From: Bdellovibrionales bacterium
GTDB lineage: Bacteria > Bdellovibrionota > Bdellovibrionia > Bdellovibrionales > UBA1609
Length of the DNA: 56,005 nucleotides
Direction of reading: 5' to 3'
NCBI GenBank assembly: GCA_023299885.1
Contig: JALZUS010000003.1
Location: 1-56,005, forward strand
The notes beneath the pieces were generated by a model. It was not told the DNA's origin. It was given only the letters and a program-made list of their open reading frames with translations, and did not search any database. How positions within the stretch are numbered: position 1 is the stretch's first letter; each line of letters starts with the position of its first letter. The position numbers and the translations under genes were made by a program. Positions 8,635 to 34,981 of this stretch are shown piece by piece.

Positions 8635-9210
8635 TCAAAGCGCTCCATTCTTTACATTAATAAGCTCTTTAGTGTGACTCATGGTCCAAGTGTCCTCAGT
8701 AGCACCCCCTAATTGCCCGCAAGCACCCATTAGAAAAGTAGCTGGATTAACCCCAGCACCAGGCGGAAATAATGACGTAGCACACAAATCACCAACAACT
8801 ACGCACTGTGTTCCGTAGCCTGCAATGTCTCCAGACAATTTTTCTGAAAAAGTTCTTCTGCAAATATTATGTGTTTCAAACATAATATTTACATTTACAT
8901 ACTGAGAAATACCATTAAGTGAAAATGGCTTAGTAACAGTCGATGCTGTCGATAAATCGCCAATCCTATACTGATATGCACCCTCTGGCAAAAAACCTAA
9001 TGCAATTAGATTATTATAATATGTATTATGTTCTATTCGAAATATTTTTTGACTCGTATAGAGCCCTGCTAAATTTGATTTAGCTTCACTTTGCTTTGCC
9101 TTACGTTGAAACTTCTGGAACTGTGGTACTGCAACAGCTGATAAAATACCAATAATAGCTACAACTATCATCAGCTCTACAAGTGAAAAACCCTTATTAT
9201 TCTGTAGCAT
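8635..9210 (-). CDS. Type IVa pilin
   Basis: Prepilin cleavage site KG|FSLVELMIVVAIIGILSAVAVP, QSEAKSNL helix, Cys residues and DTWTM C-terminus. Confidence 0.93.
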   Translation of the reverse strand: MLQNNKGFSLVELMIVVAIIGILSAVAVPQFQKFQRKAKQSEAKSNLAGLYTSQKIFRIEHNTYYNNLIALGFLPEGAYQYRIGDLSTASTVTKPFSLNGISQYVNVNIMFETHNICRRTFSEKLSGDIAGYGTQCVVVGDLCATSLFPPGAGVNPATFLMGACGQLGGATEDTWTMSHTKELINVKNGAL

Positions 9211-16712: not shown

Positions 16713-16779
16713 TGTTCTTGTTTTAATAGATTTGGTACCTATGGTAAAGCCATAGTTATTATGCCTGCACGAGCTACGC

Positions 16780-17847: not shown

Positions 17848-18838
17848 TTAAAATTTTCCAAGGAAGCTTTTCTAAATCTGAACTAGAGCCAAACCCTATA
17901 TCTTCTTTTGGGACAATGTGTGGGCCTTTAACTTCGAAAGGCTGAAAGTGTGCATCCCACTCGAATTGCTCTCCTGGTAAAAATCCACAGTCCATAAGCT
18001 TATCTTTAATAAAAAACTGTAACTTAATCGCCATGGCCATAGCTGATAAAATACCAAAAGGATGATCCATACTATGTGTCACTACGAAGTGAAGGTTTTT
18101 ACTTTTTACCTTTTTAAGTCTTTCAATAATATTATATCGACCAGGCTTTAACACCATGACATCTGCAGCTAGGTTTTCGAAATCTATATCTAATGCACAA
18201 TTATCAATTGCTAATTTTACGCCAAAAGACTGCAAATGGCTCCACTCTTCATCATTATAGTTACAAATATCTTCTACAAATTGGATCTTAGATTTAGCCT
18301 CCGCTGACAGCTGACTTAAAAAAGCTTTAGCTTGTTCAAAACTTAAAAGATTATTAAAATCAAATCTCCATAACAAATTGGATCCCGCACTCAATTGCTC
18401 TATGGTTTCAATATTTTGAGCAGTCGCTAGATCAGACTTTATCTTAATAACCTTAAATCCTTCTTTTTCTATAGCTTTTAAACTCTCAATTGTAAGTTCA
18501 TCCAAGCTAGAAATAAGCTTATGGTTTCTTAACATAAAACCTGAGGCCAATAGATCCGTATCGTTGCTACGCGCCTGCGCATCCAACATAGAAAGAGTCA
18601 TAGCATTTTTCACTAAGTCTGAAGGTTGGTCTAACAACAAACCCTCCATCTGAAAACTTAATGGTGCGTCTTTAAAAAAAGGTTTTGGACAAATATCAGC
18701 GTAACCAAATTGCCCAGGCTTCCATTCACAACCTATAATACAACCTTCTTGGTTAGATACAGTTGATTTTGACCGGTTGAGAGGCTTTAAGCCTTTTAAA
18801 TCATAATTATATATTTTTATACTAAGTGGTAACATCAA
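17840..18838 (-). CDS. menC: O-succinylbenzoate synthase (enolase superfamily)
   Basis: KIK, RFDFN, FVED, AID, VLKP motifs; men cluster context. Confidence 0.82.
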   Translation of the reverse strand: MMLPLSIKIYNYDLKGLKPLNRSKSTVSNQEGCIIGCEWKPGQFGYADICPKPFFKDAPLSFQMEGLLLDQPSDLVKNAMTLSMLDAQARSNDTDLLASGFMLRNHKLISSLDELTIESLKAIEKEGFKVIKIKSDLATAQNIETIEQLSAGSNLLWRFDFNNLLSFEQAKAFLSQLSAEAKSKIQFVEDICNYNDEEWSHLQSFGVKLAIDNCALDIDFENLAADVMVLKPGRYNIIERLKKVKSKNLHFVVTHSMDHPFGILSAMAMAIKLQFFIKDKLMDCGFLPGEQFEWDAHFQPFEVKGPHIVPKEDIGFGSSSDLEKLPWKILNA

Positions 18839-19724
18839 TTATTAATCCTACACAAAATAATAAACTATAGATAATACAAATCTTTGAAGACTCTGCTAAA
18901 TACTGGTTATACCTAGACGAAGGCTCTTCTTTAAACAGCTTAACAACTAGCCTTAACACCAAAAGAAAGGCTATCAATGGCAGAAAAGCCGCCCACTTTA
19001 GACCTTGGCCCCACCAAAAAAAACTACAAGAAAATATAGCCACGTAAATAAAAAGCACTTCATAGCGACTAAAAGTTAAACCAAATCTAGCAGCCAATGT
19101 CATTTTATTCACTTTTTTATCTTCTTTATAATCACGCATATTATTAATCACAATTAATACTGTTGCTAAGAGCCCTGCCTGCAACCCAGCAATAAAGCTA
19201 ATTAAATCATACTGGCCTGCTTGCAAATAATAAGTACCGCCGACAGCAACAAAGCCAAAAAAAATAAGGACAAATAAATCACCTAGTCCCAAATATGCTA
19301 AAGGAAAGGGCCCACCCGTATAACCATAAGCAAAAAATAAAGAAAGTAAGCCAACAAACAATATAGGCATACCCCCTTCAAGCACCAAAGGGATAGACAG
19401 CAAAGCCGCTAACAACAAGCAACCATAAGCCATTTTCATAACATGTTCGTAAGTATAAACTCCTGATTGAATCATTCGTTTTGGACCTAAGCGTGTTTCT
19501 TTGTCTGCACCTTTTTTAAAGTCCTTAGCATCATTTATAAAATTTGTAGCAATCTGTATTAATAGCGCTGCCAATAAAGTTAGTAACATTATTGTTTTAT
19601 TAATAGAACCAATACTCACAAAAGCTAATGTCGTACCAATAGCTACAGGGACTACTGCAGCTGATAAGGTTTTTACTCTTAAAGATAATAAAAAAGGCCT
19701 AAGTTTCACTAGATAAAACCCCAT
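18822..19724 (-). CDS. menA: 1,4-dihydroxy-2-naphthoate prenyltransferase
   Basis: R.KTL.AA..P, QIATNFINDAKDFKKGAD, YTGGPFPLAYLGLGD, NNMRDYKED. Confidence 0.93.
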   Translation of the reverse strand: MGFYLVKLRPFLLSLRVKTLSAAVVPVAIGTTLAFVSIGSINKTIMLLTLLAALLIQIATNFINDAKDFKKGADKETRLGPKRMIQSGVYTYEHVMKMAYGCLLLAALLSIPLVLEGGMPILFVGLLSLFFAYGYTGGPFPLAYLGLGDLFVLIFFGFVAVGGTYYLQAGQYDLISFIAGLQAGLLATVLIVINNMRDYKEDKKVNKMTLAARFGLTFSRYEVLFIYVAIFSCSFFWWGQGLKWAAFLPLIAFLLVLRLVVKLFKEEPSSRYNQYLAESSKICIIYSLLFCVGLIIDVTT

Positions 19725-20445
19725 CTACCATATCTTTACACCAATGCTCTGGACAAAAAAGAGTCCTATGGCCAATACCGCTTAGGTATTTAAATTTACC
19801 ATTTAATGATTTTTGCATTTTCTTATAAAGCTCAGTGTACTTTATGTCTTTATCACCACAAATCCAATGGTGCTTATCCAGCTGCTCTTTTGGAATAATA
19901 ATTTGAGCGGGCGACCATCTCTTAAAAGCTAAAGAGAGTTTATCTTTATTGTAGTTTTCAGATTTTCTTAATTGGAGATCATCATGTTTAAAAACATCAA
20001 GGGTCTGCCACTCCTCAAAAGCACTGTTAAAACCAGAGTCCCTAGAGAATTTATCAGCCCATATATTGTCCCAATTTTTTCTTTCTAAAACCAAGCCATC
20101 AACATCTTTCTCAGGGTAATGAAATTTAGAAATACCTGGATGAACCGACAATAAATGCATTGATTTTACAGGATGAACTCTTTCCTGATTCAACTTTAAA
20201 GCTAATCTTCCACCCATAGAATAACCTACGAAATGAATGGTCTCACTTTTTGAATTTTTAGAAATATACTGATTAAGCTCATTCCACGTGTTTAAGGGCG
20301 ACAACTGACTTTTTCGAGAAAAATAATCCATAAAAAGACATTGAGTTTCTTTAGCAAAGCCTGCCGGCAAGAGTCTTACCAGTAAATCCCAATCTGAAGG
20401 CTGACCCAGAAAACCTGGGAAAAAAACAATGCTTCTTTTAAACAT
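19699..20445 (-). CDS. menH: SHCHC synthase (alpha/beta hydrolase)
   Basis: GFLG...DW, GYSMGGRLAL, GDKD.KY, GH. Confidence 0.85.
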   Translation of the reverse strand: MFKRSIVFFPGFLGQPSDWDLLVRLLPAGFAKETQCLFMDYFSRKSQLSPLNTWNELNQYISKNSKSETIHFVGYSMGGRLALKLNQERVHPVKSMHLLSVHPGISKFHYPEKDVDGLVLERKNWDNIWADKFSRDSGFNSAFEEWQTLDVFKHDDLQLRKSENYNKDKLSLAFKRWSPAQIIIPKEQLDKHHWICGDKDIKYTELYKKMQKSLNGKFKYLSGIGHRTLFCPEHWCKDMVDGVLSSET

Positions 20446-21901
20446 GCAGACTATCCAAAAAGTTTATAGTTTGATTATTATCAATGACACATTCTATCAC
20501 TATAGCCTCTTCGTTATATTTTTTAAAACCCTCTGAGTCAGTGACTAAATGATAATCCATATTAAACATTTGAGCCCACGGCTTAAACGATAAGCTATGA
20601 TTATTTTCTAAACTTTCTAGTAATTTATTGTCTTTAAAAATTTTTGAAAAAATCTTGCCACCGCCATTATTAATAACAACAACTCTAAGCCTAACATTTT
20701 CTAAAGACTGATGAGCCCACAAAGCCTGCATGTCATACAGTGCCGACTGGTCTCCCACAACAACCCACAAATCCTTACCAGCTTCAGCACAACCCATAGC
20801 CGTAGAAATAAGCCCATCGATACCATTAGCACCCCTATTGGCATAAATTTTTTGTTTCTTTTTTGTTTCCGCAAAATCATCCCAATTTCTAATGACCATA
20901 CTGTTTCCTAAAAAAACAACAGAGTCCTCTGGAATAATACTTGATAAATAATAAATAAAACTGGGCTCTGCTAGAGGGTATTTCTCATAATTATAATTTA
21001 AGCTTTTAAGCCCATCGTTCACTCCATCATTAATTTCACCAGGAACATTTAAAGAACTTATTGGCCTAGCACTTTCTTTAATTCTAGATAAACCTGAAAA
21101 AATAGCCTTAGAAAAACTCTTTACTGGTAAGTTCGATTTCTCTAAGTCTCTCCATAGCCTGATAGTGGGCACCGAACCAATTCTTATAATGCTATCAAAT
21201 ACTGACTCAACGTAGCTTAAAGACAATTGGCTTGAGTGAATCTTTAATTGATTAATTTCTGGCTCACTCTTTAAATTTGAAGAGGACTCCAGATAAGACA
21301 TTAAATTATGTTTTTTTAAAAATAAAGCTACCGACTCTCGCTCATCATGAGTTAGAGCACCAACTATAACTAAAGGCTTTTTAAAGAAGCCTTCCGCACT
21401 CACTTTACTTACTACTTGCTTTGTTTTTTGACCAAGCAACGGCTCATCAAACCCAATATTAATATGAACTTGCCCGCTTAACTGATTAAGCTGAGTCTCG
21501 CCCTCTAAATCGTACTCATGAGTGGCAAAACCAGAAAACAAATGAGCTTGATCAATAGCCTGAGGCGCGCCAGAGCCTCTAAAGCTCTTAGGCCTATCAG
21601 CAGAAAGTATAATTATTGGAGTTGCACTATAGTAAGCCTCAATAAAAGCAGATAAACATTCAGAAACAGCAGTACCTGATGTAGTGACTACAACAGCAGG
21701 TTTATTAGTTTTTTTACCTAAACCCAAAGCAAAAAAGCTTGCACTTCTTTCGTCAAAAAAATGATGCGTGTTAATAGCTTCTGTAGATTCAATAACTGAA
21801 AGTAGCGGTGCGCAGCGCCCACCAGGACAAATCACAAAATCAGTTACACCAAAAGCAACAAGCTGATTAATAATTTTCTTTGAGGCCTCTAAATTTGTCA
21901 T
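20438..21901 (-). CDS. menD: SEPHCHC synthase
   Basis: CPGGR, DERSASFFALG, TTSGTA, SADRP, GAPQAIDQ, NRGANGIDG, NNGGG.IF. Confidence 0.95.
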   Translation of the reverse strand: MTNLEASKKIINQLVAFGVTDFVICPGGRCAPLLSVIESTEAINTHHFFDERSASFFALGLGKKTNKPAVVVTTSGTAVSECLSAFIEAYYSATPIIILSADRPKSFRGSGAPQAIDQAHLFSGFATHEYDLEGETQLNQLSGQVHINIGFDEPLLGQKTKQVVSKVSAEGFFKKPLVIVGALTHDERESVALFLKKHNLMSYLESSSNLKSEPEINQLKIHSSQLSLSYVESVFDSIIRIGSVPTIRLWRDLEKSNLPVKSFSKAIFSGLSRIKESARPISSLNVPGEINDGVNDGLKSLNYNYEKYPLAEPSFIYYLSSIIPEDSVVFLGNSMVIRNWDDFAETKKKQKIYANRGANGIDGLISTAMGCAEAGKDLWVVVGDQSALYDMQALWAHQSLENVRLRVVVINNGGGKIFSKIFKDNKLLESLENNHSLSFKPWAQMFNMDYHLVTDSEGFKKYNEEAIVIECVIDNNQTINFLDSLHV

Positions 21902-22968
21902 AACTCTTTCATTCCAATAGATTCTTTAACCGAGTTTCTTTTTAAAACAAGCTCTGTCCATTCTTTACCACAGTCACTCTGCTCTACAACCCCACACCCA
22001 GAGCCGATATAAAGCTGCCTCGAGTCCCATTGCAAATTTCTAATAGCAACTGCTATCTCCAGACTATCCTCAAGCAAGACGCCAAAGGGAGCTCCATAAA
22101 TTTCTCTATCTAGCTTTTGTCTTATTTTTTTCATTTCAGGCTTCCAAGATTCTACTCTTGGAAACAAGCCTAAGGCAGCTGTAGGATGTAATGATTTTAT
22201 CATGGAGCCGACAAGATCTTCATATTTTTTTTTGCTACCCAACTGATTATTTAGCTGGTTACCTAACCCACTATCTAATTGAGCCGAAATCAAAGTCTTT
22301 AAGTGCTTTAAAGACTTTAAAACAACTTCTTTGGTTTGTGATGTTTCTATTTTATTCGCAACAGCACTTAGTTGTCTTTTTATATCCTCAACAACAAGGC
22401 CATGCTCGTGCATCTCTTTAGCATCTTCTAATAGATTCTTACTAGAGTCTGCAGAGGCCGTACCCGCCAAAGCCATAGTTTCAAAACAATTATCTTCTAT
22501 TTTAAATAAAACTTCAGGCGTATAACCAATAATACCTTTTTGTTGATCCCAAAAACCATATAAAGAACCCTCATGCTTTAAAGAGAGTAAACTAAACAAG
22601 CAAGATGAAAGCTCGTCAGCAAGCAAAGGCCTCATAGAGGTTTCATAGACGATAGGAACCATTTTATCAAAATTAGATTTTTTTATTTTTTCAAAATACT
22701 GATTAAAAATTTTCTTTTCAGGTAGCAACCAATCTCGTACTGGGTTTATTTCTTTTAACTTTTTTCGAAGATCAGACTTATCTAATATAATATTATTCTC
22801 ATAGTTAACAAAAGGCGACGCCTCTTCGAGATAAAAATCAGTATGATAGTAGCTTGGATAACTCTTGATTTTTGAACTTTTCACAGCTTGCCCCCAGGAG
22901 ATAATCACCTTTGGACTTCCCGCTTTGGAAAAAATAGCTCCTGAATTCAAAAATTTATTAACATCCAA
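21898..22968 (-). CDS. menF: Isochorismate synthase
   Basis: TPE, MALAGT, KE.HEH.LVV, LHPTAALG, VAIR, GCGVV..S..EW.E. Confidence 0.9.
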   Translation of the reverse strand: MDVNKFLNSGAIFSKAGSPKVIISWGQAVKSSKIKSYPSYYHTDFYLEEASPFVNYENNIILDKSDLRKKLKEINPVRDWLLPEKKIFNQYFEKIKKSNFDKMVPIVYETSMRPLLADELSSCLFSLLSLKHEGSLYGFWDQQKGIIGYTPEVLFKIEDNCFETMALAGTASADSSKNLLEDAKEMHEHGLVVEDIKRQLSAVANKIETSQTKEVVLKSLKHLKTLISAQLDSGLGNQLNNQLGSKKKYEDLVGSMIKSLHPTAALGLFPRVESWKPEMKKIRQKLDREIYGAPFGVLLEDSLEIAVAIRNLQWDSRQLYIGSGCGVVEQSDCGKEWTELVLKRNSVKESIGMKEL

Positions 22969-24590: not shown

Positions 24591-24689
24591 ACCTTCTATA
24601 TAAAAAATAAATTCACATATAGTATATTTTTAATAACCTCTACTTAACTATCATAGGTCTATTTATTTGATTTGCATCTTAGACTCTCT

Positions 24690-25913
24690 ATGAAACAAAT
24701 CATTATACTCCTGCTACTTCTTAGCCCATTACAATCTGTCGCTAAAGACTACTTTATCACCCAAGGCGAAAGCCTCTACCTACCCGTATCGCCCTCGTCA
24801 CGTATTATAGTAGGTAATAGTAATATTATTAGCATTAAAGACTTGGGCAGTAAGATAAAAATATCAACCAAGAAAAAAGGCTTTTCAGCTTTAAAAATTG
24901 GGCTAAAAAGCCATAATGTTTATAGCGTAAATACCTTAGAAAAAGATCTTTACTATAAGCTACAAGAACTCATGAAAACCTTTAAGGGCTTAAAACTTAA
25001 AATGCTTAACAAAGAAGTCACTATTGAAGGAAAACTACTAAGGGTTTCTGATTATATTAACATTAAAGACCTAGCTGCTACTTCAAAACAGCCTTTACGT
25101 TGGAGGGCAAGGCCTCATAAAAATATCATTAAACCCTTTAATAAATACATTAAAAATGAACTTTTAAAATTTGGAATTGAAGCTCACTCTATTGAAAATG
25201 GTGCTGATGTATACCTACATAAAGACTATAAAAAATTGAGCCTTGAAAAGAAACTGCCTGGCATAAATTTTTATTACCTTAGCCACACACCCAAGCTTAG
25301 TAAAAAAATTAAAACAAAACTCTATTTTTTAGAAATGAGTCGATCGGCACAAAAAAAGCTAGGTGTTAACTGGGAGCAAAGTTTAAAAAAACAGCTATCG
25401 CCAACAACGACTACTACTGGTGCTCTTACCGCTTTTATCAGCGCACTTGAAGATACTGGCAATGGTCAGCTTTTAGCTAAACCTCACATTATTACAAATT
25501 CTGGAACCCAAGGTCAGTTTTTAGCTGGTGGCGAATTCCCAATTAGAAGCTACAATAGTGAAAACTCAGGAAGCATCAGTTGGAAGACTTACGGCATACA
25601 GCTTAATATCACTCCAACATATTATAAAAATAAAATTCATATAGATATTCATTCTGAAACCTCTAACATTGATCCAAGCACTAGTATTGATGGCATACCG
25701 GGCCTTAAAACTAATAAAGTCACGTCCACTATCACCCTTAAGAATAAAGCCATTAGTGTTTTATCTGGCGTTTATAAATTAGAGCATATGGAAGGTGTTA
25801 AACAAATACCCATCCTAAGCAATTTGCCCATACTCGGAGAACTCTTTAAAAGCCATACCTTCATGAAGCGTGAAAGCGACCTTGTCATTTTAGTGCAAGC
25901 AGAGGTTTTATGA
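24690..25913 (+). CDS. Tad/Flp pilus secretin (CpaC/RcpA-like)
   Basis: Signal peptide; LLAKP, FLAGGEFPI, W..YGI.L.ITP, IPILSNLPILGELFKS. Confidence 0.85.
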   Translation: MKQIIILLLLLSPLQSVAKDYFITQGESLYLPVSPSSRIIVGNSNIISIKDLGSKIKISTKKKGFSALKIGLKSHNVYSVNTLEKDLYYKLQELMKTFKGLKLKMLNKEVTIEGKLLRVSDYINIKDLAATSKQPLRWRARPHKNIIKPFNKYIKNELLKFGIEAHSIENGADVYLHKDYKKLSLEKKLPGINFYYLSHTPKLSKKIKTKLYFLEMSRSAQKKLGVNWEQSLKKQLSPTTTTTGALTAFISALEDTGNGQLLAKPHIITNSGTQGQFLAGGEFPIRSYNSENSGSISWKTYGIQLNITPTYYKNKIHIDIHSETSNIDPSTSIDGIPGLKTNKVTSTITLKNKAISVLSGVYKLEHMEGVKQIPILSNLPILGELFKSHTFMKRESDLVILVQAEVL

Positions 25914-27010
25914 GTATTGATAAACAGCGCAAAGCTTATAACGAGTTAAATAATGAAATAAATAAAACAAGCCCATCTGTTTTTTCAAATTTTGAAAAAT
26001 TCAAAAGCTCTGAAATACTTATAAAACAAAATATTAATAAAATTTCTAAAAATTATGACGATAAAACTATCGCAGCTATTTCTCGCGAAAGCCTTGGCTA
26101 TGGCCCACTAGAGGGTTTAATTGATAACCCAGATATTACAGAGATTATAATTAATAGTTATAATGAGATTTTTTTTGAAAATGATAGAAAATTTGAAAAA
26201 CATTCTCAAGTTTTCTCAACACCAGAAAGCTACTTGCAATTTATCAGAACACTTTCTTCTGAAGCTAATATAAAACATGACATCAATACGCCTTTTAGCA
26301 ATGGGCAGTGGCAAAATTTTAGGGTGCACTTAATTGCACCTCCACTAGCAGCAAACACACAACTTACCTTAAGGCGCATCAAAGAAAACGGCTGGGACTT
26401 AGAAAGCCTTATAAATAACAGCCTTATGACAGCACCACAGGCTGAAAAGTTAAAAACATTCTATAAAGATAAAAAAAGCTTACTTATTATTGGCCCGACA
26501 GGCACAGGCAAAACCTCACTTGTTAATTCGCTACTTAAGCTCTCAAAACCTTTAGAACGTATAGTTTGCCTTGAAGATACCGACGAAATTAAATTACCAA
26601 ACACATTATCCACAAAGTTACTCACAAGAATGGATCTCCATAAAAGGCTTCAAGATTTTGAGCTTTCTGATCTCATTATTCAATCGTTAAGAATGCGGCC
26701 AGACAGGCTTATATTAGGCGAAGTCAGGGGCAAAGAAGCAAAAGATTTATTAATGACATTCTCTACAGGGCACAAAGGCGGTATAGCTACCTTGCATGCT
26801 GAAAACCCCAAGCAAGCTTTATGGCGCCTAGAAATGTTAGTACAAATGGGCGCCCCTTCATGGAGCAATGATGGCATTAGACGGCTTATTAAACTGGGCA
26901 TAGATTATGTTATTACCCTAGGCTTTGAGGGCAATAAGCGAAAGCTTACTGGCATCCATAAAATACAAAGCCTAGAACCAACAGGATTTTTATTTAAAAA
27001 TGAAACTTAA
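25910..27010 (+). CDS. Tad pilus assembly ATPase (CpaF/TadA)
   Basis: GYGPLEGLI...ITEIIIN, GPTGTGKT, LEDTDE, LRMRPDRLILGEVRG.EA, TGHKGGIATLHA. Confidence 0.9.
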   Translation: MSIDKQRKAYNELNNEINKTSPSVFSNFEKFKSSEILIKQNINKISKNYDDKTIAAISRESLGYGPLEGLIDNPDITEIIINSYNEIFFENDRKFEKHSQVFSTPESYLQFIRTLSSEANIKHDINTPFSNGQWQNFRVHLIAPPLAANTQLTLRRIKENGWDLESLINNSLMTAPQAEKLKTFYKDKKSLLIIGPTGTGKTSLVNSLLKLSKPLERIVCLEDTDEIKLPNTLSTKLLTRMDLHKRLQDFELSDLIIQSLRMRPDRLILGEVRGKEAKDLLMTFSTGHKGGIATLHAENPKQALWRLEMLVQMGAPSWSNDGIRRLIKLGIDYVITLGFEGNKRKLTGIHKIQSLEPTGFLFKNET

Positions 27011-28791
27011 TCTTTTTTAATAGTCCTAATGCCTAACTCTAACAATTGATCACGGTCTACCGCGCTTGGCGCCGAACTCATCAAACAAGTAGCTTTAGCT
27101 GTTTTAGGGAAAGCAATTACGTCGCGGATAGCGTCTGTGTCACATAAAATCATAACAAGCCTATCCAAGCCCCATGCAATACCACCATGTGGAGGCGTTC
27201 CATAGCTTAAAGCCTCAATAAAGAAACCAAATTTCTCTTTAGCTTCATCTTCTGTTAAGCCTAACGATTTAAAAATAGCCTTTTGTTGATCTTGCTGATG
27301 GATACGAATACTTCCGCCCGCAATCTCATGGCCATTACAAACTAAATCATAAGCCTTAGCTTTTAAATCATGAAAATTCTTAGTGTTATTAGCAACTAAG
27401 TCACCTGCAGAGTCTGCATCAGGAGCTGTAAACGGATGGTGACAAGCGACCCAGCGGCCTTCATCTGGCGCATAATCAAATAACGGAAAGCTTGTGACCC
27501 AGCAAAAAGAGTCTTCAACTCCTTCTGTAACTTTTAACTCTTTACCCAAATGGCTTCTTAAAAACCCTAATGAATTTAAACAAGTTAATTTATCATCAGC
27601 CACTATTAAAGCCGCTCCAGATTTTTCAACACCACAAGCCTTTAAAACTTCCTTTAGCTTATCTTCACTAAAAAACTTAGAAACTGGAGACTGTAGTTTT
27701 CCGCTTTCATCAATTTTAATCCACACCAAACCTTTAGCACCCATTTGCTTGGCACTTGCTGTTAATTTATCAAACTGAGTACGGCTGTAGTGACCTATAC
27801 CCTCTACCCCAAAACCCTTAATGTAAGCGCCTCTTGAGATAACATCTGAAAATACTTTGAAGTCTGTGCCTTCAAAATTAGGCTTTAAATCAATAAGCTT
27901 CCAAGGAATTCTTAAGTCAGGCCTATCAGATCCATAATCTTCCATAACGTCGTCATACTTATAGATAGGAACCTTAGGGATATCTTTACCTTTAAATTCT
28001 TTCCATAGTTTTTTTAATAACTTTTCGTTAACAGCCATCACATCGTCTTCATCGACAAAGCTCATTTCAATATCTATTTGGCTAAACTCTGGCTGGCGAT
28101 CTGCACGCAAATCTTCGTCACGAAAACAACGAGCAATCTGAAAATATTTATCAAAACCAGAAATCATTAATAACTGTTTTAAAGTTTGCGGGCTCTGAGG
28201 AAGTGCATAAAAATCGCCATGGTTAACTCTTGAAGGCACCAAGTAATCACGCGCGCCTTCTGGAGTGCTTTTATAAAGTATAGGTGTTTCAATTTCTAAA
28301 AAGTCTTCTTCTGTTAAAAACTGCCTCACCATTTGCATCGTTTTATGGCGAGTAATCATATGTGATTGTAATTTTTTAGAGCGTAACTCTAAGTATCTAT
28401 ATTTTAATTTTAAACTCTCAGTTACCTTTTCATCACTAATTTGAAACGGAGTTGTTTCAGCAGCAGATAAAATATCAAATTCTTCTGCTATAATTTCTAT
28501 AGCACCTGTTGGTATTTTTTTATTTTCCATGCCCTCCGGCCTCTTATTGACCTTGCCTTTAAGAGCCACAACATACTCAGTCCTGACATCTTTTGCCGAA
28601 GCTTGAGCCGCTTGCTGAGGGTCAAGAACCACCTGCACTATACCTTCTCTGTCTCTAAGGTCTATAAAAACCAGGCCACCATGATCACGCCTTGTATCCA
28701 CCCAACCCATAAGGACAACAGTTTCGCCGGCATTATCTGCTGCAAGCCTGCCGCAATAATGAGTTCTTTTTTCTTTAGATACAAAGTTCAC
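27007..28791 (-). CDS. aspS: Aspartate--tRNA ligase, probably non-discriminating (Asp/Asn)
   Basis: RTHYCG, RRDHGG, ALPQSPQ, FRDEDLRADRQPEF, GLDR, VIAFPKT; GTG 28791 follows an AAGGAG RBS. Confidence 0.97.
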   Translation of the reverse strand: MNFVSKEKRTHYCGRLAADNAGETVVLMGWVDTRRDHGGLVFIDLRDREGIVQVVLDPQQAAQASAKDVRTEYVVALKGKVNKRPEGMENKKIPTGAIEIIAEEFDILSAAETTPFQISDEKVTESLKLKYRYLELRSKKLQSHMITRHKTMQMVRQFLTEEDFLEIETPILYKSTPEGARDYLVPSRVNHGDFYALPQSPQTLKQLLMISGFDKYFQIARCFRDEDLRADRQPEFSQIDIEMSFVDEDDVMAVNEKLLKKLWKEFKGKDIPKVPIYKYDDVMEDYGSDRPDLRIPWKLIDLKPNFEGTDFKVFSDVISRGAYIKGFGVEGIGHYSRTQFDKLTASAKQMGAKGLVWIKIDESGKLQSPVSKFFSEDKLKEVLKACGVEKSGAALIVADDKLTCLNSLGFLRSHLGKELKVTEGVEDSFCWVTSFPLFDYAPDEGRWVACHHPFTAPDADSAGDLVANNTKNFHDLKAKAYDLVCNGHEIAGGSIRIHQQDQQKAIFKSLGLTEDEAKEKFGFFIEALSYGTPPHGGIAWGLDRLVMILCDTDAIRDVIAFPKTAKATCLMSSAPSAVDRDQLLELGIRTIKKD

Positions 28792-28845
28792 AGTACACTC
28801 CTTAGACATATTGAAAATTAAGACCACATGAGGTTATAATGACCC

Positions 28846-29148
28846 ATGCCAAAAATCAATTTATCTCATAGTTCAAAACTCAGTCCAGAAGAAGCTTTTG
28901 AAAAAGTTTGCTGCATTATCGAAGAAGACAAACAACTCAAAAGCCTAGACTCTGGTTATCAGTGTGATTTCAACAAAAAGAAGCTCTGCGGAAGTGCCAA
29001 GAGCAAATTTTTCAAAGCAGACCTATCTGTTACTGAGTCTAAGTCCGGTAGTGATATTGAAATCATTATAGACCTTCCAATGAAATTTGCCCTTGCTAAG
29101 GGAATGATCACAAAAACCCTACAAAACAAGATGAAGTCAGTGCTATAA
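28846..29148 (+). CDS. Small protein resembling the 'polyhydroxyalkanoic acid system' (PHA_gran_rgn) family
   Basis: 100 aa; MPKI...H.S.L..EEA N-terminus and IDLP..F...KG.I C-terminal pattern. Confidence 0.6.
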   Translation: MPKINLSHSSKLSPEEAFEKVCCIIEEDKQLKSLDSGYQCDFNKKKLCGSAKSKFFKADLSVTESKSGSDIEIIIDLPMKFALAKGMITKTLQNKMKSVL

Positions 29149-29158
29149 AGAGGTCGTA

Positions 29159-30064
29159 ATGACCAGCGACGACAAGAAATCAAAAAAACCAAAGATGCCT
29201 GCCATTAAAGAAAAGGCATTAAGTGTAACGGACCCCCTGGGCCGATACATGGCTGAGGTTAAAAAATACCCCCTCCTTTCAAAAGAAGAAGAAAAGCGCC
29301 TAGCACTACTTTTTTATGATGAAGGCGATCAGTCAGCCGCCGAGCAGCTAGTGACTGCTAATTTACGCTTCGTTGTAAAGATTGCTGCTGAGTATTCTAA
29401 GTTTGGAAATAAGATGATCGACCTCATACAAGAGGGCAATATGGGCCTCATGCATGGGGTTAGACAATACAACCCCTATAATGGTGCCCGCCTTATAACT
29501 TATGCTGTTTGGTGGATACGCGGCTACATTCAAGAATACCTCATGAAGCAACACTCTATGGTTAGAGTTGGGACCACGGCCAACCAAAGAAAGCTTTTTT
29601 ATCAATTACGCAAACAAAAAGAAGAGCTAGAGCGACTTGGTTTTGATGCTGGTGTAAAAAAATTAAGTGGCCAACTTGGGATTTCTGAAAAAGAAGTTTC
29701 TGAAATGACTCAAAGAATGTCTGGTGGCGACATCAGTCTTAACAAACCCATTAATCAAGATGGGACAACAACTCTGATCGAGCTTCAGCAAGATGAATAT
29801 CAGTCACAAGCTGACGATCAGCTGGGGAATAAAGAAGAAATACAGCAATTAAGAGAAAGCATTAACAGCATTAAAGATCAGCTGAATGCTCGTGAAATTG
29901 AATTATTAAATGATAGGCTACTTTCAGACTCACCAAAAACTTTAAAAGTGATTGGCGATAAATATGGAGTGTCACGAGAGGCGGTTCGCCAAATGGAAGC
30001 TCGCCTTCTTAAAAAAATTAAAGCTAAGCTTCATGAAGCCTTAGACATAGACTCAGGAAATTGA
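29159..30064 (+). CDS. rpoH: RNA polymerase sigma-32 factor
   Basis: LVTANLRFVVKIA, DLIQEGNMGLM, YAVWWIR, RpoH-box-like QRKLFYQLR, SREAVRQME. Confidence 0.92.
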   Translation: MTSDDKKSKKPKMPAIKEKALSVTDPLGRYMAEVKKYPLLSKEEEKRLALLFYDEGDQSAAEQLVTANLRFVVKIAAEYSKFGNKMIDLIQEGNMGLMHGVRQYNPYNGARLITYAVWWIRGYIQEYLMKQHSMVRVGTTANQRKLFYQLRKQKEELERLGFDAGVKKLSGQLGISEKEVSEMTQRMSGGDISLNKPINQDGTTTLIELQQDEYQSQADDQLGNKEEIQQLRESINSIKDQLNAREIELLNDRLLSDSPKTLKVIGDKYGVSREAVRQMEARLLKKIKAKLHEALDIDSGN

Positions 30065-30828
30065 GCCCCAAGTTTGCCTCTTAACTTACCAATAGCTTGT
30101 GCATGCAACTGAGAAACACGGCTTTCTGTCACTCTCAAAATTTTACCAATTTCTTTAAGGTTTAAATCTTCGTAGTAGTAAAGTGATAGTACTAATCTTT
30201 GTCTTTCAGGAAGCTCTTCAATAGCTACAGTCATTGTCTTTTTAACTGACTTTACATTTAATTGCGCTACTGGGTTATTGAATTTAATTTCATCTAAAAT
30301 ACTTAGGATTGATTTTTTATCAACATTGCTTAACGTAGCCTGGTCATCAATAGACAAAAGGCTCACTGGCTTTACAGTATTCACTAATTTGTGAAACTCA
30401 GTCATCGTCATTTTAAGCTCTGCTGCTACCTCAGGGTCTTCTGGCAAACGGCCTAGCTCAATTTCAAGCTTATTGATTGTACGATCTAATAATTTAGATT
30501 TATCACGAACAGAACGAGGAACCCAATCTTGTGCTCTAAGCTCATCTAAGATGGCACCACGAATCCTGAACTCAGCATAAGTTTTAAATTTGTTGTCACG
30601 AGTAGAGTCATACTTATTAATAGCATCCATTAAACCAATAACACCACTTGATATTAAATCATCTAACTCTATGTTTGATGGCAAACGCATTGCAATTTTT
30701 TGCGCGATAAATTTAATTAGTGGAGCGTACTCGGTGATCAGCCTGTCTTTTTGCTGATCAGTTAAAAGACTCGGAGTCTCTTTATACTTCTTTAACAGGC
30801 TTGCTACGTTACTCTTCTCTGACATCAC
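30031..30828 (-). CDS. fliA: RNA polymerase sigma-28 factor (FliA/WhiG)
   Basis: DDLISSGVIGL, YAEFRIRGAILDELRAQDWVPRSVR, LSLYYYEDLNLKEIG, TESRVSQLH. Confidence 0.96.
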   Translation of the reverse strand: MMSEKSNVASLLKKYKETPSLLTDQQKDRLITEYAPLIKFIAQKIAMRLPSNIELDDLISSGVIGLMDAINKYDSTRDNKFKTYAEFRIRGAILDELRAQDWVPRSVRDKSKLLDRTINKLEIELGRLPEDPEVAAELKMTMTEFHKLVNTVKPVSLLSIDDQATLSNVDKKSILSILDEIKFNNPVAQLNVKSVKKTMTVAIEELPERQRLVLSLYYYEDLNLKEIGKILRVTESRVSQLHAQAIGKLRGKLGAQFPESMSKAS

Positions 30829-31094
30829 TTCACTCCTTTGAACTAATGATTATTATACTAATTTGAGACTCTGTTTTATACGGTCAAATAAAAAACAAAT
30901 ACTCGCTTCCATTCTTTTCTACAAAAACTTCATTGTTTTCATAGGCTTAACATTGTTTAACTTCTTGTTTTTACAATGTTATTTTGTATCGATCTGAAAC
31001 ATAAAAAATATTTTTTCTTTTCTTTCTCTTGTCTCAACCTGATACACATTTTATTTCTATCAACACTTTCGCAACACTCTTGGTTTCTTTTTTC

Positions 31095-31949
31095 TTATAT
31101 TGCCTTTTGCATGTATTCACTCACATGGCGCTGGCTTTCTACTTTAGATACAAACCTTGTCTTGAAAATGTTTTTAATAAATAAGTACTGTGTCCCTTCG
31201 ATCTCTATAACCAAGAGCTTTTGAAAAAGCCCCAAGCTATACTCATCAGACACATGTACAAAGCTATTTGAGTTAAATATTTTTTTCTTTCTTTTAAAAG
31301 AACCAATAAATACAAAGAAAAGTGCAGCCAATAATAAAGCCATAGCTGCATAGACAATGCCTTGTAAATTTTTCTCAAAATTTGATGGATTACGCTCAAT
31401 AGAATTAACCGAAATCTGATCAGCCTGTGTCTTACTTATAACCGGAGCTAAAGCCTCAACAGGTGTCTTATCAGTATTCTTATTGGTAGTTTTTTCTTGA
31501 ACCTCTTGCTCAATCTCACCAAGCCTTTGGCTTAATTCAAATGAAGGCTTTAAATTAATGAAGTTTTCAAGGTTTAAGCTCAAACGCTTTCCATCTTTTT
31601 CCGCCACAAACTTATCTTTTACAGATAAAGCGTCAAAGCCTTTCTCAAAAACAATACGCACTCTCATTGTGTTCTTATCATATTGATAAAAAGAGACTTT
31701 ATTTATTTTTTGAGTATTTTCAGGGCTGAATTCTGCTTTTCTCATTACAATAGAGTTAGGAATACTAAGTTGTATAATATTAGAAAAATAACTCGTTTTA
31801 ATTTTGTTATTTTTTAAAGCCTCGTCAAAAAATACGTTGATATTGAATTTACCATTCTTTTGCTCGTAATTATGACTTCTATAAAAAGGCTTAGCATAAG
31901 ATATACTACACGAAAGTAAAATAGCCGCCATTAATGCTTTTTGATACAT
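31095..31949 (-). CDS. FliO-like protein (signal peptide, AMIN-like domain, TM helix, FliO-like C-domain), divergent
   Basis: C-terminal FVHVSDEYSLGLFQKLLVIEIEGTQYLFI after a TM helix resembles FliO; position after fliL and the fliM-like gene. Confidence 0.6.
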   Translation of the reverse strand: MYQKALMAAILLSCSISYAKPFYRSHNYEQKNGKFNINVFFDEALKNNKIKTSYFSNIIQLSIPNSIVMRKAEFSPENTQKINKVSFYQYDKNTMRVRIVFEKGFDALSVKDKFVAEKDGKRLSLNLENFINLKPSFELSQRLGEIEQEVQEKTTNKNTDKTPVEALAPVISKTQADQISVNSIERNPSNFEKNLQGIVYAAMALLLAALFFVFIGSFKRKKKIFNSNSFVHVSDEYSLGLFQKLLVIEIEGTQYLFIKNIFKTRFVSKVESQRHVSEYMQKAI

Positions 31950-32792
31950 TTAAGCTCCCTTCATTTCATGCTGAGTGCTTATAGAAAAACTAACTACACC
32001 CTCTTTAATAGTGATTTCACCAGTCTCTATACGAACCCTATCAACCACTAAATAGAACGGATACACCGCTAGAACTTCAAAAGATTTTTTAGCGATCTCA
32101 TCTAGATTAATATTTTCAAGATAAGCATATGTGCTCACCTTTAAAGAATCTCTTGTATTAAAAATTTCAAAATTAAGGCTATCAATATCTACAGAAACTA
32201 TATTTTCTTGAGTGAGCTCTGCAATCACAGCATCTTCAAAATAAAGGGCTAAATTCGCATTAATTTTCTCAGCCAAAGTAGACTTTGCAACCACTACATT
32301 CTTTTTAGTGATTGGAGTCACTACAGCTAAATCCGCAGTACGCGACTTAAAGTAATTTGCAGGCACACTTATCTTTATCATTTGATCTTCAAAGTTAAAA
32401 CGATAAAGAGTAGCTGATTCATTATTTTCAAAGCCATCCAATAAAGCGGAAGCTTTTAAAATTTGCTTTGATACATTATTTTGAATTTTAGAAAAGATAT
32501 GCTTTTCTAAATGACTAGGCTTACTAGCACTAGCATAAGCTTTACGCGAATACTCTTTAGAAAGAAGCTCTCTATTAACAGTATTACTAATTTCAAGATC
32601 AATACTTTCAACATCATTTTCTAAAGGCTTAGAGTCGATAAAATAAAGATCTATTTTATAACCTAAACGATCTGTAAAAATAGACTCTAAAGTCTCAGAA
32701 AGCTTATCAATACCATCTACAGCATTTGTGTTGCTGCCAGAAAATACAGCCTGTATGGCCTGAAGTTCTGTCTGTGATAATTTATCGCTCAT
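31950..32792 (-). CDS. Highly divergent FliM/FliN-like protein
   Basis: N-terminal LSQTELQAI resembles the FliM LSQxEIDALL peptide; C-terminal PFYLVVDRVRIETGEITIKEG resembles a SpoA/FliN domain; synteny. Confidence 0.45.
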   Translation of the reverse strand: MSDKLSQTELQAIQAVFSGSNTNAVDGIDKLSETLESIFTDRLGYKIDLYFIDSKPLENDVESIDLEISNTVNRELLSKEYSRKAYASASKPSHLEKHIFSKIQNNVSKQILKASALLDGFENNESATLYRFNFEDQMIKISVPANYFKSRTADLAVVTPITKKNVVVAKSTLAEKINANLALYFEDAVIAELTQENIVSVDIDSLNFEIFNTRDSLKVSTYAYLENINLDEIAKKSFEVLAVYPFYLVVDRVRIETGEITIKEGVVSFSISTQHEMKGA

Positions 32793-32814
32793 TCTTTTCC
32801 CTTACAGCAAGCTA

Positions 32815-33243
32815 TTACAGCTTGGCTCCTATATATGTGACACTTAAAACTTCGCCTTGAGTTAAAAAGTCATTTATAAAAAGCTGAAGCTCTTTACCCA
32901 TTTTATTTTGACCTTTTTTACTTAATACCGTGTCTGAAGTGTTTGAAGAAAAAGTCATAGAAATCATATTTTCAAACTGACTCCCCATACTATCTATTTC
33001 TTGTTTTACACGGTTGTTACTGCAGTATAATTTAAAATCAAGCTCGTAAGCCTTAATTCCTTTATTTGAATTTAATCTCACTAGTAGTTTTTTTTCTGAT
33101 ATATGATTGCTTGTTCTAGGCTTAACCTCTACCACTTGATTAGGAACATTGTTTGTTTCTTTGTGAGTGTTTAATGACCTGTACATAAATAATCCTGCAC
33201 TGATCATAAGAGTTAAAATTAAAAAAGGTTTTATCAACATCAC
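32815..33243 (-). CDS. fliL: FliL-like flagellar basal-body-associated protein
   Basis: N-terminal TM helix; LVRL, QEID, FSSNT...S..G...L..FINDFL..G.V..V pattern of FliL. Confidence 0.72.
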   Translation of the reverse strand: MMLIKPFLILTLMISAGLFMYRSLNTHKETNNVPNQVVEVKPRTSNHISEKKLLVRLNSNKGIKAYELDFKLYCSNNRVKQEIDSMGSQFENMISMTFSSNTSDTVLSKKGQNKMGKELQLFINDFLTQGEVLSVTYIGAKL

Positions 33244-33255
33244 ACAAGTATCAAT

Positions 33256-33271
33256 TGCAACACGGATACCA
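33256..33271 (-). promoter_or_regulatory. Sigma54 -24/-12 promoter for the fliL operon
   Basis: Minus strand TGGTAT-ccgtg-TTGCA, GG-N10-GC, immediately upstream of fliL. Confidence 0.65.
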
Positions 33272-33417: not shown

Positions 33418-34233
33418 CTACAAAGTTTCTTTAAGCTTACTAATAGATAAATCATGAAGGGTACCGTTAGTAGCTAAGATGCTCTTAGAGTCCATGGCAA
33501 AAGTATCACCACTATATTGAGAAACACGGCCGCCAGCTTCTTCTACCAGTAATGAGCCCGCAGCTACATCCCATGGCTTTAATCCTGATTCCCAGAAGAT
33601 ATCAATTACACCGGCCGCCACCAAACATAAATCATAAGCAGCAGACCCCGTACGTCTAAAGCCTCTTATGCCTGAAATCATTTTTGAAAACCTTTGAATT
33701 TGCTGGTTAAGCACTTCTTTATCTGGAGCAATAAATCCAGTCGCCATTAATGCCTGCGAGTACTCTCCCCTAGAACTTACTGATATCTGATGAGTCCCTT
33801 CAGGAGTTTTTAAATAGGCACCCTTATTCTTTTCTACGTAAAATGTGTGCTTGAGTTCGGGCAAGTGCACTACACCGACCTGCATTTGACCATCTACTTC
33901 GACGCCAATGCTAGTGCAGTACAATGGGACTCCATATATATAGTTAGTTGTCCCATCTAATGGATCAATAATCCAGCGAGTACCCTCAGAGCTTAATAGG
34001 CTACCACCGTCTTTGAAGTGAGACTCTTCTGCAATAATGTTATGATCTGGAAAGCTCTTTTTTATTATGGATATAATAGCGTCTTCACAGGCCTCGTCCG
34101 CCTCTGAAACTAGCCCTTCATTATTTTTTTCTCTGATATTTTTAAGCTGGCCTTTGTATTTTAAAAGTATTTCAGCCGCTTTATCTGCAGCCTCTAACCC
34201 CACCTCAAGAATTTTGTTATTTGAAACGTTCAT
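33418..34233 (-). CDS. suhB: Inositol monophosphatase family protein
   Basis: LVSEAD, AEES, WIIDPLDGTTNY, RRTGSAAYDL, KPWDVAAG.L.V.EAGG; start taken at ATG 34233. Confidence 0.93.
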   Translation of the reverse strand: MNVSNNKILEVGLEAADKAAEILLKYKGQLKNIREKNNEGLVSEADEACEDAIISIIKKSFPDHNIIAEESHFKDGGSLLSSEGTRWIIDPLDGTTNYIYGVPLYCTSIGVEVDGQMQVGVVHLPELKHTFYVEKNKGAYLKTPEGTHQISVSSRGEYSQALMATGFIAPDKEVLNQQIQRFSKMISGIRGFRRTGSAAYDLCLVAAGVIDIFWESGLKPWDVAAGSLLVEEAGGRVSQYSGDTFAMDSKSILATNGTLHDLSISKLKETL

Positions 34234-34360
34234 GAAGTCAGCATACCTCAAAAGAACTGCATTATCTATACTATTGATTCTACTTAACATTAGATTTTTA
34301 CTTAGATTCAAGATACCATTTTAAAAAAGCGTTGTGACAACGACTCAACCGGAGGCCCAA

Positions 34361-34981
34361 ATGTCTGAAGAAGAAAACAACAATGATTCTAAAATGCAAT
34401 CTTTTGCTAAGCTTATTTTATTTTTATTCATTTCTTTAGTTTCTTTTGCAACAGGTACATTTGTTGGTAAAAATCTTGATTCATCAAAAAGCAGCACAAA
34501 AAGTGTTTTAATAGAACCCAACAATGAGGTTCAGTCTGATATTGCTATTTTAGAAGACGAAAGTGATAACGATGAAGCTACTACAATTATCACCGAAGAA
34601 GATGTCTCCGAAGAAATTAAGGCCATAGATAGCCCTGCAATTCAAAAGATAGCTAAGGAATTCGAAGCCACAAAAAAGAAATTAGCAGAAAAAATTGCTA
34701 ATCGTCCCAAAACAAAAAAAGCTATTGTGCCTGCAGCCTTCAAATACACTATTCAAGTTTCTTCTTACTCTTTAGAGTCTGAAGCGCAAACAAAGGTTAA
34801 GAATTTAAAAGCTCGTGGCTTTGATAAAGCTTTTTATATCCCTGCAGTAGTAAGAGGAACCACTTGGTACAGAGTCGGTCTTGATTTCTTTGAAACCTAC
34901 AAAGAGGCTGATAATAAAAAAACCTCTCTTACAAAACGTGGCGCTATTTCTGATGCTATTGTACAAAAAGTAGAGCTTTAA
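34361..34981 (+). CDS. Bitopic SPOR-domain protein
   Basis: RBS GGAGG; one TM helix, acidic linker, YTIQVSSY...A...L...G...WYRVGL SPOR domain. Confidence 0.88.
   Translation: MSEEENNNDSKMQSFAKLILFLFISLVSFATGTFVGKNLDSSKSSTKSVLIEPNNEVQSDIAILEDESDNDEATTIITEEDVSEEIKAIDSPAIQKIAKEFEATKKKLAEKIANRPKTKKAIVPAAFKYTIQVSSYSLESEAQTKVKNLKARGFDKAFYIPAVVRGTTWYRVGLDFFETYKEADNKKTSLTKRGAISDAIVQKVEL

Follow-up and report, generated by a model that had tools for sequence, protein, structure and literature searches.

Probable retention of FliA and three altered proteins after collapse of the main flagellar operon in a Bdellovibrionales genome

What remains of a flagellar operon in a bacterium that apparently has no flagellum, and do the remaining genes still serve the cell? 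The question is raised by a locus in a stretch of 56,005 nucleotides (nt) from a Bdellovibrionales bacterium (assembly GCA_023299885.1, contig JALZUS010000003.1, positions 1 to 56,005), which we call the window. At this locus a FliL-like gene, two barely recognizable open reading frames (ORFs) and an intact fliA, which encodes sigma-28, follow one another on the same strand, and the genes for the flagellar export apparatus are missing. We favour the explanation, which we consider probable, that the main flagellar operon collapsed by internal deletions and that FliA and three altered genes were kept as working proteins. Below, orf280 denotes the ORF of 280 amino acids and orf284 the FliO-like ORF of 284 amino acids; these two and the FliL-like gene are referred to as relics. 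Labels of the type G000 stand for genomes and L-labels for loci.

The operon remnant and its flanks

The order of elements given in the original prediction proved correct, and all four frames are open on the minus strand. A sigma-54 (−24/−12) promoter motif of the form TGGTAT-N5-TTGCA (TGGTATCCGTGTTGCA, positions 33256-33271, minus strand) stands upstream of the FliL-like gene (32815-33243, 142 amino acids), which is followed by orf280 (31950-32792), orf284 (31095-31949), an AT-rich gap of 266 bp (30829-31094) and fliA (30031-30828, 265 amino acids). The start codon of orf284 comes immediately after the stop codon of orf280, and beyond the gap fliA has a ribosome-binding site of its own. On the fliL side the locus is flanked by genes for an inositol monophosphatase (IMPase; 33418-34311, minus strand) and a SPOR-domain protein (34334-34981, plus strand). 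On the fliA side lie rpoH (29159-30064, plus strand), an ORF of 100 amino acids (28846-29148, plus strand) and the AspRS gene (27007-28827, minus strand). As an aside, rpoH and fliA are convergent and their 3′ ends overlap by 34 nt (30031-30064); in G009 an ORF of 303 amino acids that belongs to no known family separates the two.

We compared this arrangement with 40 relatives, which together with the genome of the window make a set of 41. Both flanks, AspRS/100-amino-acid ORF/RpoH on one side and IMPase/SPOR on the other, are those found in flagellated relatives, and the IMPase and SPOR neighbours also stand beside fliL in G007, G003, G001 and G009. In G007 and G009 the slot between the flanks holds fliL-fliM-fliN-fliO-fliP-fliQ-fliR-flhB-flhA-flhF-flhG-fliA, each gene confirmed by Pfam or blastp, and the starts of fliL and fliA are 10.5 kb apart in G009 and 2.4 kb apart here. 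When the relatives' operon proteins were searched against the window by tblastn, only FliL (G007 query, E = 6.5e-10) and FliO (E = 1e-8, over the full length) found matches, and no trace of fliN, fliPQR, flhBA or flhFG was seen at the locus. An in-frame stretch resembling FlhF residues 197-241 (E = 0.039) was judged a chance match, given the tiny search space and the 18 queries. Because the flanks are the same as in flagellated relatives, where about 10.5 kb fills the slot, sequence comparison shows the locus to be the orthologous main flagellar operon with about 8 kb of its middle missing. Among the 80 nearest FliA loci, 73 have the usual flhA/flhF/flhG upstream of fliA, three are cut by contig ends and four are shortened (L110, L129, L131 and L149).

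At least one internal deletion, of about 8 kb in total, would thus have removed fliN, fliP, fliQ, fliR, flhB, flhA, flhF and flhG. At the two ends fliL, behind its conserved sigma-54 promoter, and fliA would have survived, and between them a fliO of the AMIN type and, in the place of fliM, a reshaped gene. In the 266-bp gap, tblastn with the relatives' operon proteins found no recognizable remnant of deleted genes, and a scan of the gap for a strong sigma-70 promoter or a terminator gave nothing above the level of shuffled sequence. A misassembly in the gap (30829-31094) was one of the conditions under which the original prediction was to fall, and it is unlikely. A single contig from run X1, which is possibly the source sample, covers 29000-32374 with zero differences, and contigs from run X2 reach into the gap from both flanks (29485-31052 and 31077-31524), with none among those listed bridging 31053-31076.

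The losses extend beyond the locus. In the assembly (1,838,699 bases in 86 contigs, 91.79% complete, 0.08% contamination), family searches, each with positive controls that matched in known genomes, found no FHIPEP/FlhA, Flagellin_N, FliMN_C, FliP, YscJ_FliF, Flg_bb_rod, CheW, MCPsignal or FliG_C, and tblastn with the operon proteins of G007 returned only ParA-like and SRP54-like paralogues. The genes said to be absent, fliPQR, flhBA and flhFG, were accordingly detected neither at the locus nor elsewhere in the assembly, and a complete fliL-flhG set at another site, which would have reduced the genes studied here to paralogues, was not found. To judge from these searches the genome is apparently without a flagellum, and the deletions in the operon would be part of a genome-wide loss of flagellum and chemotaxis.

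A second flagellar relic locus (L081) lies at 45065-46838 of contig C5. It carries a gene for a 219-amino-acid FlgG-like protein reduced to the D1 core (PF22692, 47.9 bits; TIGR02488, E = 2.9e-26), which is overlapped by 4 nt by a FlgM-like ORF of 72 amino acids. A gene resembling REP-associated tyrosine transposases follows on the other strand, and then csrA.

The three altered proteins and the selection acting on them

The product of the first gene, in the fliL slot, has the hydropathy profile of a protein with a single N-terminal membrane helix followed by the FliL periplasmic domain. It matched solved FliL structures, 7sgn over residues 54-136 (E = 1e-4) and 9hmf_O (E = 0.0065). One membrane helix and a periplasmic FliL domain are also features of flagellar FliL, described as stomatin-like and as forming a stator-associated ring in the available parts of the published accounts (PMC6426602, PMC8794807); the protein encoded here differs in its low identity to the orthologue of the nearest flagellated relative (26%) and in its setting, a genome in which neither a MotA/MotB stator nor a flagellum was found. 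A stator partner is lacking among the genes detected, since all five MotA_ExbB-family genes are TolQ/ExbB-like and searches of the genome found no flagellar motor genes. These five belong to TolQ/ExbB-TolR/ExbD-like sets (L002-L006), a count reached in 1.84 Mb and with no true MotA; one set is a Tol-Pal system with TolA and another adjoins a GltG/GltJ-like adventurous-gliding gene.

Measured against that same nearest flagellated relative, FliO is 27% identical, vs 76% for FliA, 65% for AspRS and 64% for RpoH; two flagellated genomes compared with each other agree at 75% in FliL and 82% in FliM. That the three structural genes are very divergent and FliA well conserved, as had been noticed from the sequence, is thus confirmed, with FliL and FliO falling below their family cut-offs and orf280 in no family at all. 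One point of annotation concerns the FliL-like protein. The public gene call (P0006, 130 amino acids) begins 12 codons downstream of the start used here and would cut the membrane helix (33207-33243), and the longer form is supported by the sister homologue P0007. As the −12 element of the sigma-54 motif lies only about 12 nt before the start codon of the longer form, a nearly leaderless transcript is implied.

To judge from its sequence and its predicted structure, orf284 is an AMIN-transmembrane-FliO protein and a FliO orthologue. The predicted parts are a signal peptide, a periplasmic AMIN domain (residues ~19-134), a linker, a membrane helix (~194-220) and a cytoplasmic FliO beta-domain. 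It is similar over its full length to the long FliO of G008 (the match at E = 1e-8 given above) and to that of G027 (blastp and tblastn), and both of these proteins pass Pfam FliO. The AlphaFold2 (AF2) model, with a mean predicted local distance difference test (pLDDT) score of 70.1 that rises to about 90 for residues 20-130, begins with a signal-peptide-like helix and a beta-rich domain, which a linker joins to a helix at 192-219 and a C-terminal sheet of four strands at 231-270. In VIA-align the N-terminal domain was closest to the AMIN domain of AmiC (4bin; Z = 11.5, root-mean-square deviation 2.5 Å over 102 residues) and to PilQ AMIN entries (Z = 10.9, 10.4 and 10.3), with the next fold at Z = 6.6. 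By Foldseek the same similarity was weak (E = 0.004-0.06), and this domain has no Pfam match.

The export-gate partners of FliO were not detected in the genome, FliP by family search and FliP, FliQ and FliR by tblastn. An AMIN-TM-FliO architecture (TM, transmembrane) has been reported for Bdellovibrionota, together with FliO homologues in some non-flagellated organisms, in the available part of a preprint (PMC12248157). The protein encoded here shares that architecture and the retention of FliO without FliPQR; it differs in lying inside its own operon remnant, beside a FliL-like gene, a FliM-derived gene and fliA, and in scoring below the family thresholds, and it is not among the cases named in that part of the preprint.

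The middle relic, orf280, is an orphan in the fliM/fliN slot. It has no hydrophobic segment and is predicted to be cytoplasmic; it matched no family in Pfam or NCBIfam, and its AF2 model is poor (pLDDT 38.6). Among 5.8 billion proteins its sole homologue is P0002 (59% identity by BLASTP, 63% in the alignment). It found only itself among 1.84 billion representatives, nothing in the 40 relatives, nothing by tblastn against all frames of the relatives' loci and no usable match in the ESM Atlas; in JGI metagenome contigs, none of 290 pattern matches was confirmed. Its residues 1-21 align to residues 1-21 of FliM only (hhalign P = 0.005, probability 7%). Among the 1734 N-termini of the genome's own crude ORFs, that of orf280 scores best against the FliM N-terminal profile. 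If this top score and the position in the fliM slot were unrelated, their joint occurrence would be a 1-in-1734 coincidence, and we therefore read the N-terminus as putatively FliM-derived. The peptide concerned, of the LSQxE..A type, is identical over 15 residues in orf280 and its homologue, and is presumably the segment by which FliM binds CheY.

The remainder of orf280 gave no such signal. From residue 26 to the end, its score against a profile of 28 relatives' FliM was no better than that of shuffles (463 and 279 of 1000 reach the real score), and the same was true of residue 191 to the end against the FliN profile; neither the FliM middle domain (PF02154) nor FliMN_C (PF01052) was found in it. 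A colinearity with FliM seen by eye in a MAFFT alignment was dropped after the profile tests gave it no support. We call orf280 a protein with a putatively FliM-derived N-terminus, so that the earlier label 'FliM/N-like' can be kept, as FliM-like, for the first ~21 residues only.

Are these three genes still maintained? The search of 5.8 billion proteins found homologues of all three in one sister lineage, P0007 for the FliL-like protein (81%), P0002 for orf280 (63%) and P0004 for orf284 (74%), each with a longest contig of 8470 bp. Two relics also have homologues from a further source, P0008 (FliL-like, 85%) and P0005 (orf284, 70%). When neutral drift to the sister identities was simulated, the frame stayed open in none of 1000 runs for orf280, in one of 1000 for orf284 and in 86 of 1000 for the FliL-like gene. 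Measured against a neutral null kept free of stops, the replacements were more conservative than chance in all five comparisons (0 of 200 simulations reaching the real value in four of them, and 2 of 200 for FliL-like vs P0008), and conservation was more clustered than under this null in orf280 and orf284 (0 of 200). The C-terminal domain of the FliO-like protein is nearly invariant across three lineages.

Variants among strains in X1 and X2 tell the same story on a shorter scale. Synonymous and nonsynonymous differences number 5 and 3 in orf280, 6 and 2 in orf284, 11 and 0 in RpoH and 0 and 1 in the FliL-like gene; pooled over orf280 and orf284 there are 11 synonymous vs 5 nonsynonymous changes (P = 6e-5 to 8e-4). 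These sequence comparisons show all three relics to be under purifying selection at the protein level. The changes form a pattern in which a burst of divergence would have been followed by constraint, an ordering not calibrated against time. The FliL, FliM/N and FliO relics are therefore not dead genes, and they may, as had been suggested, have been repurposed. Separately, X1 holds two 98-base contig versions of the segment 32375-32412 within orf280, one identical to the window and the other with six differences, four synonymous and two conservative; two strains therefore coexist in it.

FliA, its candidate regulon and the sigma-54 promoter

FliA is intact. It scores 269.4 bits with TIGR02479 (curated cut-off 189.6), its Pfam sigma-70 regions 2, 3 and 4 are all above their cut-offs, and it is 70-78% identical to the FliA of most relatives and 74% identical to that of B. 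bacteriovorus. Of 20 genomic matches to the motif TAAA-N14-16-(G)CCGATA(A/T), nine fall within the 150 nt that precede an ORF of the same orientation. In 179 controls, for which the −10 box was permuted, the number of such upstream matches averaged 0.8 and never reached nine. The Bdellovibrio-type motif T[AT]AA[AG]-N15-17-CCGATA gave 20 upstream rows, corresponding to 16 sites; the 60 controls averaged 1.2, with 7 as the highest value. Candidate promoters of the sigma-28 type are thus strongly enriched upstream of genes. The genes behind them mostly belong to no family, several being lipoprotein-like; the rest encode two PilZ proteins, a stand-alone receiver (C30:10890-11294) and a Fis-type regulator.

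FliA would therefore have a non-flagellar regulon, with surface or secreted proteins of no known family, the two PilZ proteins, the receiver and the Fis-type regulator as candidate targets, and it would probably be restrained by a FlgM-like protein encoded elsewhere. A candidate for the latter is the 72-amino-acid ORF of the second relic locus (C5:45721-45939), which scores 24.8 bits (protein) or 24.1 bits (genome) with PF04316 against a cut-off of 25, over the C-terminal half of the model only, and E = 8.6e-5 with TIGR03824. FlgM matches occur in five of the 11 flagellum-less genomes of our set, three of them above the cut-off.

In B. bacteriovorus, TTAAG-N16-CCGATA was found in 92 of 140 attack-phase promoters and FliA was concluded to be a global attack-phase regulator, in the available part of the report (PMC3627812). 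The regulon proposed here would continue that role. The likeness extends to the taxonomic order, to the identity of FliA, to the enrichment of the same promoter type and to targets mostly of unknown function (PMC3627812, available part); the difference is that B. bacteriovorus, with its complete operon, bears a flagellum, whereas here there are about 16-18 candidate sites and no flagellar targets are left. The earlier proposal that the lineage lost its flagellum and kept FliA fits the intact fliA and its candidate promoters, and agrees with the Bdellovibrio role as far as it is described there.

Within the window, TGGYAYN5TTGCW is matched by the sigma-54 motif TGGTATCCGTGTTGCA alone; 0.30 matches are expected by chance and at least one occurred in 27 of 100 shuffles. 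Of 28 flagellated relatives, 25 have a motif of this type ahead of fliL, as do six of 10 further loci, and rpoN is present in the genome. RpoN and an activator would drive the remnant operon and hence at least part of the expression of fliA. Elsewhere in the window, the segment 50376-53741 encodes a CHASE2 histidine kinase and, after it, a response regulator with receiver, sigma-54-activator and AAA+ parts, a candidate activator for sigma-54 promoters such as that of the FliL-like gene.

Recurrence among relatives and competing explanations

The state seen in the window recurs. FliA is present in all 41 genomes, FlhA in 30 and FliM in 29. The 11 genomes without FlhA and FliM, all of which keep FliA, are G000, G002, G004, G006, G012, G017, G018, G019, G022, G027 and G031; they measure 1.2-2.4 Mb, and G012 is only 80% complete. 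On a tree of AspRS, FliA and RpoH (41 rows, 1132 columns) the flagellum-less state requires six changes, at least four of them forced by well-supported branches, and the window's genome pairs with flagellated G009 (Shimodaira–Hasegawa-like approximate likelihood ratio test, SH-aLRT, 88). Since we infer a flagellated ancestry, these changes are read as independent losses.

What is left upstream of fliA differs from lineage to lineage. There is fliL only in G002, G017 and G018, fliL and fliO in G031, fliO, flhF and flhG in G027, and nothing in G006. In G019, G004 and the shortened locus L149 a short ORF is accompanied by an unrecognizable ORF of 242-317 amino acids. The short ORF is FliL-like only in G019, and there faintly (Pfam E = 0.0069); in G022 a short ORF is linked by blastp to the FliL of G007 (E = 4e-4). 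A derivation of the longer ORFs (312, 317 and 242 amino acids in G019, L149 and G004, respectively) from FlhF was rejected by blastp and by the FlhF profile. A FliL-domain match was obtained in five of the 11 flagellum-less genomes, always in the copy adjoining fliA; besides the window's genome these are G002, G017, G018 and G031, and the gene is kept even in genomes of 1.2-1.5 Mb. Two of the 11 pass Pfam FliO.

Several observations on related genomes stand beside this. In most flagellated genomes the FliL domain is matched three times, by the operon copy, by a frame of ~170-200 amino acids and by a third frame, mostly of ~300-380 amino acids; flagellum-less genomes with any FliL have the operon copy next to fliA only. 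Two operons look as if caught in mid-decay. In that of G003 (L048, L079) four stops interrupt the frame of fliM and flhA is split; that of G008 (L050) consists of fliL-fliO-fliPQR, shortened flhB and flhA, then flhF and fliA, with no fliM/fliN and no flhG at the locus.

How do these findings bear on the possible explanations? It might be that the relic ORFs have no function of their own and have stayed open either because the loss was recent or because stops in them would have polar effects on fliA, whose expression would depend on the sigma-54 promoter ahead of fliL. This is unlikely, although the large divergence of the relics from the nearest flagellated relative and the different relic content of different lineages speak for it, and a deletion that spares the promoter tends to spare fliL, the first gene of an operon in which fliA is the last. 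An open but functionless frame would not be expected to carry replacements as conservative as those in all three relics, nor conservation as clustered as in orf280 and orf284, both of which led to rejection of the stop-free neutral null. The nearly invariant C-terminal domain of the FliO-like protein and the mostly synonymous strain variants argue in the same direction, as do the 266-bp gap and the separate ribosome-binding site that set fliA apart from the relics, and the survival of fliL in the smallest genomes. Far less credible is that the flagellar genes are hidden in the 8% of the genome missing from the assembly, or that a misassembly joined fliO to fliA. The completeness figure, the 86 contigs and the lack of a listed X2 contig across 31053-31076 leave some room for it; yet nine family searches and tblastn with eleven operon proteins found nothing, their absence would require simultaneous gaps at several separate loci, and the locus that holds them in relatives was assembled here without them, with the X1 contig running through it. 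The second relic locus, with its truncated FlgG-like and its FlgM-like genes, shows decay elsewhere too, and ten of the 40 relatives are in the same flagellum-less state, four of them as closed single contigs.

A different possibility grants the relics a function and makes it a joint one, with the FliL-like, FliM-derived and AMIN-FliO proteins forming one new peptidoglycan-anchored complex that serves a non-flagellar motor of the TolQR/ExbBD/Agl type, as in gliding, or the control of FliA and FlgM, since export of FlgM would have ceased to be possible. The arrangement of the three genes suggests co-transcription, orf284 following directly on orf280, and all three are conserved together in the sister lineage. 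One of the five TolQ/ExbB-like sets, in a genome with no true MotA, stands beside a gliding gene, the FliM-type peptide is unchanged between orf280 and its homologue, and sigma-28-type sites lie upstream of the gene for the stand-alone receiver and of two PilZ genes. No evidence of contact among the three proteins was seen, however, other flagellum-less lineages keep different subsets, and FliO and FliM are not known as partners in flagella. We regard such a complex as improbable. The notion of a non-flagellar 'envelope module', in which the relics would work together, found no support. A more specific version is likewise doubtful, namely that FliL, AMIN-FliO and the FliM-derived protein were exapted together as a peptidoglycan-anchored inner-membrane complex that is coupled to gliding units of the TolQR/Agl type or frees FliA from FlgM without an export gate, the FliM-type peptide docking the stand-alone CheY-like receiver.

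Collapse by internal deletions, with FliA and the three altered genes kept as working proteins, therefore remains the explanation we prefer. The relics would owe their retention to a non-flagellar job, FliL as a membrane-anchored protein, AMIN-FliO as one that binds peptidoglycan and the FliM-derived protein as one of the cytoplasm. Against it weigh the following points. The family assignments are weak: the FliL-like protein scores 19.8-20 bits with Pfam PF03748 (gathering cut-off 24.6) and, at E = 5.7e-10, still far below the cut-offs of the NCBIfam FliL models; orf284 scores 17.4 bits with TIGR03500 (E = 0.0034; cut-off 55.25) over residues 204-257 only, and Pfam FliO (PF04347) has no match in this genome. 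The N-terminal score of orf280 is weak alone (7.0 bits, E = 0.49), and no statistical test related the protein to FliM or FliN beyond residue ~21. An assembly 91.8% complete in 86 contigs leaves the absence of the flagellum unproven. The identities to the sister lineage are protein-level values that lack a housekeeping gene as yardstick; the tree comes from a quick search, has four long-branch rows and is based on three markers, one of which is FliA itself. That flagellum-less lineages differ in their relic sets speaks against a single conserved module of a new kind. When 11 loci orthologous to that of the receiver gene were scanned with the pattern used, none showed the sigma-28 site, and no RNA runs carrying the stretch were listed.

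The retention of FliA, FlgM or FliO after loss of the flagellum has already been described in other lineages, and the view of the locus as an undescribed kind of system has to be given up. Non-flagellated Legionella (clade III, e.g. L. oakridgensis, and L. longbeachae) keep fliA and flgM or a few regulators, according to the available part of the source (PMC5655016). As described there, the flagellar regulon was lost, sigma-28 and its anti-sigma factor were retained, and FliA controls non-flagellar genes. The case presented here differs from Legionella in that structural relics (FliL, FliO, the FliM-derived ORF and the truncated FlgG-like protein) persist, under selection, and in that the organisms are Bdellovibrionales, in which the loss recurs in several reduced-genome lineages. 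Literature searches outside subscription journals listed no publication in which Bdellovibrionales lacking a flagellum retain fliA or fliL. What is added to the known theme is thus the presence of structural relics under selection in their own operon remnant, and the recurrence of the collapse across reduced-genome Bdellovibrionales, often with fliL beside fliA. Such genomes are a natural experiment on what single flagellar proteins can do without a flagellum. They point to non-flagellar roles of FliL and FliO, which are among the flagellar proteins least understood, and the small candidate FliA regulon could define the core lifestyle programme of uncultured Bdellovibrio relatives.

Some minor observations concern other genes. 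In G006 (L196), a 1.6-Mb single-contig genome with an odd amino-acid make-up, the match to AspRS is interrupted in frame by two TGA codons and that to FliA by one TAA; TGA may be recoded there, or these may be sequencing errors. The window itself also carries a type IV pilin gene (8635-9210), a secretin gene paired with one for a T2SSE-type ATPase (24672-27010) and a run of menaquinone-type biosynthesis genes (14728-22968) that encode a chorismate-binding enzyme, a thiamine pyrophosphate (TPP) enzyme, a hydrolase, UbiA, OSBS, an AMP-ligase and a polyprenyl synthase.

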